From NCBI GenBank assembly GCA_963823555.1, contig CAWGMA010000001.1:864001-928000 (forward strand): a stretch of 64,000 nt of DNA, in the 5' to 3' direction. The notes under the pieces are model-generated. The model did not search any database. It saw nothing but the letters and a program-made list of their open reading frames with translations, and had not been told where the DNA came from. Both the position numbers and the translations under genes were made by a program. Every line of letters starts with the position of its first letter. Positions within the stretch are counted from its first letter, which is position 1. Of this stretch, positions 25,814-61,663 are shown one piece after another. Source of the stretch: Candidatus Eiseniibacteriota bacterium. GTDB lineage: Bacteria > Eisenbacteria > RBG-16-71-46 > CAVPCR01.

Positions 25814-25886
<73 letters not shown>

Positions 25887-25951: not shown

Positions 25952-26027
25952 GGGCGGGTAGCTCAGCTGGCAGAGCACCAGGATCACAACCTGGGGGTCA
26001 CAGGTTCGAGCCCTGTCCCGCCCACCA
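25952..26027 (+). tRNA. tRNA-Val(CAC)
   Basis: GGGCGGG/CCCGCCC acceptor plus ACCA, CCAGG-ATCACAA-CCTGG arm, ACAGG-TTCGAGC-CCTGT. Confidence 0.92.
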
Positions 26028-27445: not shown

Positions 27446-27827
27446 GAGGCCGGAGTCGGTGAGGCGACCGCGGGCCGCCGAGAGGCGGCTCGAGGAAAGT
27501 CCGGGCTCCACAGGGCAGGGTGCTGGGTAACCCCCAGCGGGAGCGATCCTAGGGAAAGTGCCACAGAGAATAGACCGCCTAAGTCCCGCCTCGGCGGGGC
27601 CGGCAAGGGTGAAACGGTGAGGTAAGAGCTCACCAGTGCTGGCGGTGACGCCGGCAGCTCGGTAAACCCCACCCGGAGCAAGGCCAAATAGGGGAGGAGA
27701 GGCGGCCCGCCTCGTCATGACTCCCGGGTAGGCTGCTCGAGGCGTCCGGGAACGGACGTCCCAGATGAATGGTCGCCAGGCCCCTCGGGGCCGGCACAGA
27801 ACCCGGCTTACCACTGGCTCCGGCCTC
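27446..27827 (+). ncRNA. rnpB: RNase P RNA (class A)
   Basis: GAGGAAAGTCCGGGC, GAAAGTGCCACAGA, GGTAAACCCC, ACAGAACCCGGCTTA; 5'/3' P1 complementarity. Confidence 0.97.
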
Positions 27828-58842: not shown

Positions 58843-60033
58843 TTGGATCCAGACCAGTTGGCGGCCGCCATCTGCCTCGATGAAACGCCCGGGGGACGGC
58901 TCGGCCCCCGCGAACGCAAAGAGTGTCTTGAGCACCATCTCGGGCCGCTCGGCATCCTTCTCACGTCACCGAAGCTCAGCGCCCAGCGCGCGCGATGGCA
59001 GGATCGTCGAGCGCGCTCCGCCTGGCGGGCCCGAGCCGAGGCCTTTGCCGCCCGCGGGGGGCGCTTCCTCCCGGCCACGGATCCTGCCTATCCGCTTCGT
59101 CTCACGCCCTTCGAGTGGGCGCCGGCCTGGCTCTACGCCCTGGGAACGAGCGCCCTTCCTGACCGCACGGTGGCCATTGTGGGCACGCGCCGTGCCACCC
59201 CGAGTGCCCGGGAGCTTGCCGCCGGCCTGGCCCGCGGCTGCGCCACGGCGGGAGTGTGCGTGATCTCGGGGCTCGCGCGCGGCATCGATGCAGCGGCCCA
59301 TCATGGAGCGCTCGAAAGGGATGGAGTGACGGTCGCCGTGCTCGGGACCGGTGTCGATCGCTGCTATCCTGCCGTGAATCGCCATCTCTACGCTGCCATA
59401 GCGGAGCGCGGGCTCCTCTTGAGTCCCTTTCCTCCGGGCGCGCCGCCGCGCCGTGAGCACTTTCCGCAGCGCAACGCGTTACTCGCCGCCCTGGCGCGGG
59501 CCGTTGTCGTCATCCAGGCTCCAGCCCGGAGCGGTGCCCTCCTGACCGCCCATCACGCCGCCGAGATCGGCTGCGACGTGCTCGCCGTACCGGGCGACCC
59601 CATCCTGCCGGAGAACGCGGGCTCCAATCGCCTGCTCGCGGCTGGAGCCCGGGTGGCGCTCGGCATCGAGGATGTGCTAAGCGCTGTCGCTGGCTACGAG
59701 GTCCCGACATCCGGAGTGACGACGGTGGCGGGGGGAGGGCTGGATCCCCCGCTCGTGCCACCGATCGCAGCAGTCGATCGCCGCCTGCTCGCCGAGCTGG
59801 ACCTCGTCCCCCGCGCACCCGATCAGCTGGCCGTCGCCCTGGACACGCCGGTGACCGAGGTGCTCGCGGGCCTCCTCCGACTCGAGCTGGCCGGCCTGGT
59901 CGAGAGGCTTCCGGGAAGCGCGGTGCGGCTGACTCCTCGCGCGGCTCGTTCCGCGCGGATACGATGGGCCGATGACGGCGATCATCGCCGGCGCCGACGC
60001 CCGGGCAGGAACACGGAGGAACGGGGTTCATGA
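58843..60033 (+). CDS. dprA: DNA-processing protein DprA
   Basis: VAIVGTR, SGLARGIDAAAH, FPQRN, SGALLTA, C-terminal LELAG winged helix. Confidence 0.93.
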   Translation: MDPDQLAAAICLDETPGGRLGPRERKECLEHHLGPLGILLTSPKLSAQRARWQDRRARSAWRARAEAFAARGGRFLPATDPAYPLRLTPFEWAPAWLYALGTSALPDRTVAIVGTRRATPSARELAAGLARGCATAGVCVISGLARGIDAAAHHGALERDGVTVAVLGTGVDRCYPAVNRHLYAAIAERGLLLSPFPPGAPPRREHFPQRNALLAALARAVVVIQAPARSGALLTAHHAAEIGCDVLAVPGDPILPENAGSNRLLAAGARVALGIEDVLSAVAGYEVPTSGVTTVAGGGLDPPLVPPIAAVDRRLLAELDLVPRAPDQLAVALDTPVTEVLAGLLRLELAGLVERLPGSAVRLTPRAARSARIRWADDGDHRRRRRPGRNTEERGS

Positions 60034-61049
60034 GCGAGGAGATCGTCGAGACCGAGCAGCCAAGGCCGGTTTCATTCTGGCTGGATATCGGCTATCGCAG
60101 CCAGTACCTCGCCTTGCGCGTGGCCATGGAAGCGGCCGGTCTGCTGCCGCGCTCCTTGATGGGTGTCGCCGGCGACTGGGCCGGTGAGTTCGTGTATCGC
60201 GTGCTGCGCGTTCGTCGCCGGGTGGTCGAGGACAACTTGCGCGCCACCCTGGGCCAGACCCTGGATCGGGCTGGCATCGACTTGATCGCCCGCGGCGTGT
60301 ACCACCACCTCGGTCGCACGCTATTCGAGTACGGGAGCTTCCGCCGGTTGGATCCGGAACGCCTTCGCGAGTGGGTCGAAGTGCGTGGCGTCGAACATCT
60401 CAAGGAAGTTCAGGAGCGAGGTCGCGGTGCCATCCTGGTCACCGGTCATTTCGGAAACTGGGAGCTGATCGGTGCGGTTGTCGCCATGTACGGCTACCCG
60501 ATTCACTTCCTCGCCAAGGAGCAGCGCAATCCGTATGTCGACCGCTACATGGACCGCACGCGTCGCAAGCACCTCGGGGTGGGCGTGCTCAACCCCGGGC
60601 CCGAGCTCCGGCGCGTCTATCGCGCCCTGCGCCAAGGCGAAATGCTGGGCATGCTGTTCGATCAGGATGCGGGGCCGCGTGGGGAGTTTCTCGATGTGCT
60701 CGGTCGCGTGGCTTCGGTGCAGACAGGGGCCGCGGTTCTCTCCCACCGGACGGGGGCGCCGATCCTGACCGGCGGCATATTCCGCCTACCTGATGGGCAC
60801 CACCGGGTTTCGATCGAGCCGGCCATCGATCCCAATACCGAGGCGCCCCTGGCGGATGAGGTGCGCCGGCTCACCACCCATGCCGCAGCCAGCCTGGAGC
60901 GCTTGATCTGCCTCCACCCCGAGCAGTACTACTGGGTTCATCGCCGATGGAAGACGAGACCGCCGGGGGAAGAGAGGGACACCAAGTCGTCGCCGGGCGG
61001 GATGCAAGTCGGAACACAAAAAGGTTCCCCATCGCCTTCACGCCGCTAG
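60030..61049 (+). CDS. Lipid A lauroyl/lysophospholipid acyltransferase (HtrB/LpxL family)
   Basis: GHFGNWE, DQD, HPEQYYWVHRRWK. Confidence 0.92.
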   Translation: MSEEIVETEQPRPVSFWLDIGYRSQYLALRVAMEAAGLLPRSLMGVAGDWAGEFVYRVLRVRRRVVEDNLRATLGQTLDRAGIDLIARGVYHHLGRTLFEYGSFRRLDPERLREWVEVRGVEHLKEVQERGRGAILVTGHFGNWELIGAVVAMYGYPIHFLAKEQRNPYVDRYMDRTRRKHLGVGVLNPGPELRRVYRALRQGEMLGMLFDQDAGPRGEFLDVLGRVASVQTGAAVLSHRTGAPILTGGIFRLPDGHHRVSIEPAIDPNTEAPLADEVRRLTTHAAASLERLICLHPEQYYWVHRRWKTRPPGEERDTKSSPGGMQVGTQKGSPSPSRR

Positions 61050-61166
61050 CCATCCGTGGCGACCCCACACATCTTTGAATGGGGCACGTCCGCTCTCTAG
61101 GGCCGAGTGTTACGGTCACCTGGAGTGGTCTCGGGCGCGACTGCGATAGGGAACCCCGCTCCGCTT
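61018..61166 (-). ncRNA. Candidate structured small RNA (6S-like rod; family unassigned)
   Basis: Nested stems whose G-U pairs work only on the minus strand; upstream promoter; 3' UUUUU. Confidence 0.65.
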
Positions 61167-61172
61167 GACGAC

Positions 61173-61201
61173 AAGCTAGCCGCCGACTCCTGGCCTGTCA
61201 A
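61173..61201 (-). promoter_or_regulatory. Sigma70 promoter for the candidate ncRNA
   Basis: Minus strand TTGACA-N17-TAGCTT. Confidence 0.7.
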
Positions 61202-61297
61202 GCTGGGTCGTGTGCGGGGAAGTTGAAATCTTCGTTGTGGATTTTCGGTCCCCGATCCGCTTCGGTGCCGACCGGTCCCGACGCGGCCGGCCTCCGT

Positions 61298-61663
61298 TCA
61301 CGACTGCGGTGGCGCTCCACCTGATTCGGTGGGTATGGGAGTCGTGAACCCGATATGCCGCGGGGCCAGTTCGCCCGGCGGTGACGGGATCGTGCCGTGG
61401 TCGCCCTCGTAGCGGGCGATGTTCTGGTCGAGAGCAGCGCGCAGCGCCTTCACATGCTGCGGTGTCATGACGATACGGGCGTGAACGCGCGCCCGGCGGG
61501 CGCCAGGGAGGATGCGAGCGAAGTCGAGGATAAATTCAGAAGGGGTATGGGAAATGAGGGCCAGGTTGGAATAGATGCCCTCCGATTCACGCTCTCCGAG
61601 TTCGACGCCGATCGACTGCACCGGGGGTGCGTTGCTCGCCGGGGGCCGCTGTCCGCTCGCCAT
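61298..61663 (-). CDS. DUF3467 domain protein
   Basis: GIYSNLALISHTPSEFILDF, RIVMTPQHVKAL..AL..NI..YE. Confidence 0.88.
   Translation of the reverse strand: MASGQRPPASNAPPVQSIGVELGERESEGIYSNLALISHTPSEFILDFARILPGARRARVHARIVMTPQHVKALRAALDQNIARYEGDHGTIPSPPGELAPRHIGFTTPIPTESGGAPPQS

Follow-up and report, generated by a model that had tools for sequence, protein, structure and literature searches.

A conserved RNA gene of Eisenbacteria that is likely a shortened 6S RNA paralog without the inner arm

In an Eisenbacteria genome, a rod-shaped RNA had been proposed from the nucleotide sequence; its neighbours are a DUF3467 gene on one side and, on the other, a convergent gene for a lipid A acyltransferase. 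The initial annotation left it open whether this is a compact divergent 6S-like RNA or a new class of non-coding RNA, and this is the question raised by the locus. Positions are those of the window, by which we mean the complete stretch of 64,000 nucleotides that was analysed. The element is a real, conserved RNA gene with its own promoter (Table 1). With its closing arm kept and its inner arm missing, the 6S-like alternative is favoured and a new class has become less likely. The RNA is best regarded as a variant of 6S rather than a new class, and is likely a shortened 6S paralog which has lost the inner, sigma-contacting arm. It should not be filed as a member of 6S; it is probably 6S-derived and may work like 6S.

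Table 1. Features of the RNA gene and its neighbours, in window coordinates.
Feature	Position	Strand	Remark
-35 box TTGACA	61196..61201	-	sigma70-type promoter; invariant in three genomes
-10 box TAGCTT	61173..61178	-	17-nt spacer to -35; TAGC conserved in three-genome comparison
Non-coding RNA gene, copy A, about 149 nt	61018..61166	-	ends predicted; read as armless 6S-like paralog
5' leader AAGCGGAGCGG	61156..61166	-	window RNA
Closing arm, 5' strand	61114..61155	-	predicted template strand
Apical domain, 49 nt	61065..61113	-	boundaries from fold
Apical motif GAGCGGACGUGCCCC, 15 nt	61081..61095	-	invariant in six of six A-type copies
Closing arm, 3' strand	61023..61064	-	from fold
U5 tail after closing stem, likely terminator	61018..61022	-	U tail in five of six A-type copies
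DUF3467 gene, upstream neighbour only	61298..61663	-	PF11950, 83.9 bits
Lipid A acyltransferase gene, convergent neighbour	60030..61049	+	PF03279, 172 bits

All four helices that had been proposed are contained in the minimum free energy structure at the same coordinates: 61143-61155/61023-61035 (13 bp), 61134-61140/61038-61044 (7 bp), 61122-61128/61050-61055 (6 bp and a bulged C) and 61114-61120/61058-61064 (7 bp). The length of the apical domain, the five U directly after the closing stem and the exactly three G-U pairs within the helices were also found as described. The minus-strand fold (-72.4 kcal/mol, z score -4.2) was not reached in stability by any of 200 shuffles, and the plus-strand fold is weaker (-63.7 kcal/mol, z score -3.0). 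In most members of the family described below, a GAG in the leader pairs with the 3' end, which leaves one bulged C. From the CCCUA anchor (61151) to the CC which ends the arm (61115-61114), the closing arm measures 38 nt, as in 6S. The apical domain is predicted to be partly paired rather than open, and its length exceeds the median of the family by 19 nt. It can be understood as the 5' and 3' strands of a 6S bubble, joined without an inner arm, plus about 19 extra nucleotides. The GG of GAGCGGACGUGCCCC sits at the position of the invariant GGG that opens the inner arm of 6S.

The promoter TTGACA-N17-TAGCTT is present on the minus strand at 61201-61173, as had been claimed. It is absent from the output of a generic promoter scan, and its -10 box has three of the six consensus letters. 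TTGAC occurs at most 62 nt upstream of all 43 family members versus 2 of 43 control windows. The 3' end had been placed antisense to the last codons of the acyltransferase gene; this overlap is real (61018-61049, the last 32 nt of the ORF) but is absent from the related genomes G001 and G004, so that among three genomes checked it is confined to the window genome. DUF3467 genes had been suggested as a handle for finding homologs. The RNA was found in this way, but visual inspection of 450-500 nt at each of 50 DUF3467 loci revealed it at only one, and the association is local to one order.

A BLAST search over 61 genomes yielded a match of 80% identity in G001 and a two-piece match in G004, both syntenic and with the promoter kept. 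Strict-pattern scans retrieved further true homologs, three among 17 matches from metagenomes and two among 67 from GTDB genomes (L172 and L176, both Eisenbacteria). Together with five syntenic homologs, the window copy forms the A-type set of six copies, in which the 5' leader, the ends of the closing stem and the 15-nt apical motif are invariant. In viral sequences, the single match to one pattern is attributed to chance and a second pattern had none; the 15-mer, searched with one mismatch in 206 genomes, occurs at control level. Covariation, which had been named as a check, did not rise above shuffles within the six A-type copies, but the closing helix does covary in the wider family.

This family was uncovered with covariance models built from the six A-type copies (R1), from 43 sequences (R2) and from 21 canonical 6S RNAs only (R3). 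R1 finds previously unseen RNAs of 124-134 nt, scoring up to 46 bits, in 40 of 151 Eisenbacteria genomes at E<=0.5. Of its 54 matches, subsequent counts omit five antisense duplicates as well as L289, L290, L293, L292 and L281; the alignment of 43 rows omits L288. With R2, the count rises to 93 of 151 genomes at E<=0.05 and 85 at E<=1e-4; 76 of these 85 also hold a full 6S, and two of the weak R2 matches are themselves canonical 6S RNAs. Members are about 130 nt long (median 129). R2 has no match in genome families f6, f11 and f14 and only a 6S in f8, and no family member was found in G003 (99% complete) and G002 (85%), which belong to the same order as the window genome. In the family alignment 87% of cells are paired, compared to 48-59% in slid controls, and 13 of 25 pairs show two-sided changes. 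None of 500 shuffles had as high a paired-cell score, for a structure that was chosen on the same sequences, which are kin and thus not independent.

In 17 of 24 loci scanned for neighbours, a gene for UDP-glucose dehydrogenase or an NAD-dependent epimerase lies on the upstream side. The gene for ffh is a neighbour in two of the 24, and mgsA/rarA in the three copies of a paralog termed C. The C copy of the window genome (L278, G000:C1:639551-639685, minus strand), which R1 matches at 639553-639685, has an apical motif that differs from that of the window copy, and C is divergent from mgsA/rarA in three genomes. According to the available part of PMC8414754, rarA also adjoins 6S in lactic acid bacteria, which is possibly a coincidence. 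In family f9, the short RNA is head to head with ffh at L242 and L245. Some genomes have three short copies in addition to 6S.

The RNA is probably transcribed. Of all words in a 2-kb query, 6% were present in a sediment metatranscriptome, and the sole matching piece was an identical contig of 154 nt (61006-61159, depth 5, one study). The RNA did not lie at the centre of the query, which makes the fit of the contig suggestive. However, a control coding stretch gave an identical contig of 266 nt at depth 4.1 in the same run, and DNA carry-over or patchy cover may thus explain the RNA contig. Such contigs carry no strand or end information, and uncovered flanks are uninformative. The check for a transcript, which had been proposed, therefore returned a contig but no sign of abundance.

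Kinship with 6S runs through the family. Scanned against Rfam, the window RNA matches no model at the gathering score, 6S and SRP included, and none at E<=10 over 60900-61300; a scan of ten family loci matched no Rfam family either. Against a plain 6S HMM, which has too little power, the window RNA reaches 1.3 bits, below the shuffle maximum of 3.5. Against a 6S arm profile it scores 11.4 (30 shuffles: mean -5.8, maximum 15.8), and with R3 14.5 bits, second to an unrelated match of 14.9 bits in the same 24 kb; its antisense strand reaches 4.4 bits. Judged from its sequence, the window copy belongs to the most diverged part of the family, and taken alone it scores at noise level with 6S models. 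For the family as a whole, the short RNA, read on its own strand, is the top-ranking R3 match in 24 of 28 loci, or in 22 of 26 once the two that had been found through Rfam 6S are set aside, and 17 of the 28 exceed the best unrelated match of 14.1 bits. Scores with the arm profile are positive for 50 of 51 short RNAs, with negative shuffle means and -10 for SRP.

Three landmarks recur at comparable spacing. Measured from the CCCUR anchor to the arm-ending CC, the arm has a median length of 38 nt in 6S (15 of 21 measurable) and 36 nt in the short RNAs (54 of 59). The GG landmark has an offset of 53 in 6S (21 of 21), 50 in the family (51 of 52) and 61 in the window RNA. The length enclosed by the arm is 99 nt in 6S, about 30 in the family and 49 in the window RNA. 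In the 6S alignment, the two bubble strands total about 29 nt, so that the family resembles a 6S from which the inner arm has been taken out. The consensus of RF00013 carries the same landmarks, and this model aligns four short relatives (L396, L401, L447, L445) with 4-20 nt in place of 59-98 inner positions where this is displayed, at 24.9-34.1 bits and thus below the cut-off of 46.4 bits. L401 is a clear intermediate, with both bubble motifs kept and the inner arm replaced by a few bases; the fit of L396 and L401 is partly circular, as both had been retrieved by means of the Rfam 6S model.

Similar RNAs occur elsewhere. When R2 was applied to 121 and 31 genomes of two further phyla, it gave three and four matches at E<=0.05, of which two and two are armless and 6S-like; the remaining three were dropped as unconvincing. 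The four RNAs are 93-105 nt long and score 30-42 bits with R3. Two carriers, G248 and G257 (Gemmatimonadota), also have a full 6S, while G363 and G385 from the other phylum show only the short match. In 37 genomes of other phyla, R2 gave no convincing match (best E 0.038).

Other results set the family apart from 6S. In the reverse test, R2 finds only four of 18 6S loci, at 13-17 bits. The CACCY motif of the 3' bubble strand is found in 21 of 21 6S RNAs versus one of 43 family members. In an unrooted and weak tree from the 109 columns of the arm, a long branch separates the main family from 6S, and short RNAs with a GGGCUGAUCC-like motif lie beside 6S together with a second full-length 6S. By this placement, armless forms may have had more than one origin. 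The GGGCUGAUCC-type RNAs (L335, L342, L347, L396, L445, L447) are 104-123 nt long, are nearer to 6S and seem to have no TTGAC promoter; a related motif is also present in the second full-length 6S of G059 (L405). A further group of paralogs with a CUCAGCCUUG-like apical sequence and TTGAC promoters (L337, L339, L340, L341, L344, L349) occurs in families f4, f5 and f12.

Among the characters that define 6S, the window RNA has a closing arm of about 40 nt (38 nt), while the RF00013 score, the length, the inner arm with its '-35'-like region and the CACCY motif with an open bubble are all lacking. The available text of PMC8414754 gives 160-200 nt for 6S, compared to a predicted 149 nt here. The window genome has a canonical 6S elsewhere (L001, C1:1385085-1385273, 88 bits), flanked by ORFs which, from their translations, we take to be zapA-like and ymdB-like/folD-like. 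Several other identities were considered and rejected. The window RNA shows neither the helix-8 motif nor the Rfam score of an SRP RNA, and the SRP RNA of this genome is found elsewhere (G000:C1:2005641-2005816, minus strand), with its stem extended to about 176 nt, and matches both the small and the large SRP model; a resemblance to the SRP Alu domain led nowhere upon comparison. A bacterial Y RNA resembles the window RNA only in the bulged C near the end, five of five genomes have no TROVE (Ro60) protein, and the window RNA has no Rfam match. The two GGA triplets conserved in A-type copies recall CsrB/RsmZ-type sponges, but most other members have GGG. One strong BLAST match and two model matches per genome do not amount to the many copies of a MITE.

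On balance, we favour the view that the RNA is a shortened 6S paralog, predicted to act as a weak or re-addressed RNA polymerase decoy, a partial mimic of an open promoter. As the sigma-gripping inner arm is missing, it would likely be an undescribed kind of polymerase decoy, spread over a phylum that is uncultured. In 6S, as presented in the available part of PMC8876501, the closing arm stands for downstream DNA, the bubble for the melted start region and the inner arm for a '-35'-like sigma contact, with helix P2 contacting beta and beta'. The same portion of that source describes B. subtilis 6S-1 engineered without the '-35' region, which still forms the complex, serves as template for product RNA and is released again, although its affinity is about 10-fold lower, and reports that the terminal stem of E. 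coli 6S is dispensable for complex formation. The best-conserved shared part alone is thus no proof of polymerase binding. The Eisenbacteria RNA keeps a 6S-length arm with a 6S-like terminal sequence, capped by a domain about as long as two bubble strands; with such an arm and cap it would be expected to enter the cleft of the polymerase, binding less tightly and making no contact to sigma70 region 4. It would then be a second, weaker or differently aimed decoy beside canonical 6S, and the invariant apical motif might decide which form of polymerase or which cofactor the RNA binds.

Under this model, the RNA might be released once short product RNAs are copied from the nucleotides that follow the CC at the end of the arm. 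By the template rule in the accessible text of PMC8414754, a CC is copied into GG at positions 4/5 or 5/6 of the pRNA, and an A adjoins the start. The CC is present in the window RNA and in 41 of 43 members. At the usual start positions +3/+4 after it, the window RNA has A and A; a pyrimidine followed by A is found there in 10 of 41 family members versus 14 of 20 6S RNAs, and a pyrimidine at either of the two positions in 33 of 41 members, which is near chance.

A more far-reaching version is offered tentatively and we hold it to be doubtful: at least three phyla would encode natural armless 6S RNAs that skip sigma70 region 4 and capture core or alternative-sigma holoenzyme, the apical motif serving as address and several paralogs as parallel decoys, and in some lineages such an RNA may be the sole 6S-type RNA. 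rpoN is found in 145 of 151 genomes. The apical motif resembles the reverse complement of the sigma54 -24 element, with a poor fit in spacing. Many genomes of families f15 and f16 have two rpoN matches.

The RNA might instead descend from 6S and have been repurposed, the arm being a scaffold which presents an apical GCGGACGUGCC motif and titrates another protein, with CsrA as one candidate. This would account for the loss of the 3'-bubble motif and for the presence of the same 13-nt motif in RNA-B, a short hairpin RNA without relation to the window RNA that occurs in three of the order's genomes, and csrA is present in five of five genomes while the RNA has two conserved GGA triplets. Such a scaffold, however, needs neither a phylum-wide arm of 36-38 nt nor a 6S-like GG spacing, and the apical site reads GGG, not GGA, in most subfamilies. 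CsrA sponges bear many GGA hairpins. We consider repurposing unlikely. That the C-rich apical motif pairs with G-rich sites in mRNAs is very unlikely: the invariant 15-nt motif does end in CCCC and is shared with RNA-B, a typical hairpin-plus-terminator sRNA, but its complements are rarer than those of shuffles (54 vs 127 for 7-mers, 12 vs 32 for 8-mers, 1 vs 7 for 9-mers) over 2238 gene starts, a rough count on crudely defined starts with shuffles that preserve base counts only. Furthermore, Hfq is absent from five of five genomes, and the motif varies among subfamilies while the arm is conserved.

A class unrelated to 6S, its likeness due to convergence of GC-rich closing stems, would fit the missing Rfam matches of the window RNA and the ten family loci, the weak scores of single sequences and the long branch in the arm-only tree. 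It appears improbable in view of three landmarks recurring at 6S spacing, of an intermediate with a clean deletion of the inner arm (L401) and of antisense strands that score lower. Finally, the element might be of local nature, either an antisense RNA or terminator of the acyltransferase gene or a small mobile inverted repeat. The 32-nt overlap points in this direction, as does the corresponding gap being empty in 49 of 50 other DUF3467 loci inspected. This explanation has been largely refuted and has hardly any probability left: G001 and G004 have no overlap, there are two copies per genome, most family members adjoin other genes, and the scans with two patterns recovered no viral copy.

As a predicted polymerase decoy, the window RNA can be compared with several known RNAs. 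It shares with 6S/SsrS (RF00013) the stand-alone rod, a closing arm of the same length, the UCCCU...GGGGA ends, the arm-ending CC and a similar GG spacing, and differs from 6S (about 185 nt) in its length of 149 nt (about 130 in the family), the lack of an inner arm, the loss of CACCY and its coexistence with canonical 6S. To our knowledge, the 6S RNAs reported so far have two arms and bind the primary-sigma holoenzyme specifically. Like 6S-2 of B. subtilis and other second 6S copies, it is an extra 6S-type gene, whereas those are full-length with both arms (160-200 nt, PMC8414754), as far as the available parts of PMC8876501 and PMC8414754 describe them. The engineered B. subtilis RNAs 6S78 and 6S82cp, also without the '-35' region, complete the 6S cycle in vitro according to the accessible text of PMC8876501. 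These are artificial, with both arms shortened and the native two-sided bubble kept, while the window RNA has a full closing arm and a bubble closed into a loop.

The Ms1/CoRP RNAs of Actinobacteria are likewise structured RNAs on polymerase, and Ms1 binds core without sigma (available part of PMC11077062). They belong to another phylum and gave no sequence match in the Rfam scans. Ms1 is much longer than the window RNA. By analogy, an armless mimic might bind core without sigma as Ms1 does. 6S-Flavo (RF01685) is another short 6S-type RNA, with a model of 108 positions, and is said to do the job of 6S; unlike the window RNA, its alignment appears to cover the bubble and the inner hairpin, the half which is missing here (both from the available part of PMC2864571). 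The RF01685 model had no match at E<=10 in five genomes.

Our literature search, which lay outside most subscription papers, the main 6S surveys and the cryo-EM paper, found neither the family nor natural armless 6S RNAs described. With a conserved natural form that lacks the sigma-contacting arm, it becomes possible to test how small a 6S can be while still functional in vivo, and whether there are RNA decoys of core or alternative-sigma polymerase outside Actinobacteria. As armless RNAs fall below the Rfam cut-off, lineages counted as being without 6S may hold them; G363 and G385, with only an armless match and completeness not given, are examples. For structural work, the family is a ready set of natural variants.

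RNA-B, which shares the 13-nt motif GCGGACGUGCCCC with the window RNA, is a separate sRNA candidate with promoter, hairpin and terminator and without an Rfam match. It is found at G000:C3 around 285560-285700 (L141/L148), on G001:C4 (L150) and at G003:C1:1636571 (L145), upstream of the same secreted-protein gene in three genomes and, in two, following a gene that resembles hflX. The 13-nt motif has a third exact copy (L143, G001:C1:366492), which is paired with an inverted copy 60 nt upstream; this third copy lies on the antisense side of the start of a secreted-protein gene and may be due to chance. The window also carries an RNase P class A RNA (27452-27825) and two tRNAs (25814-25886 and 25952-26024).
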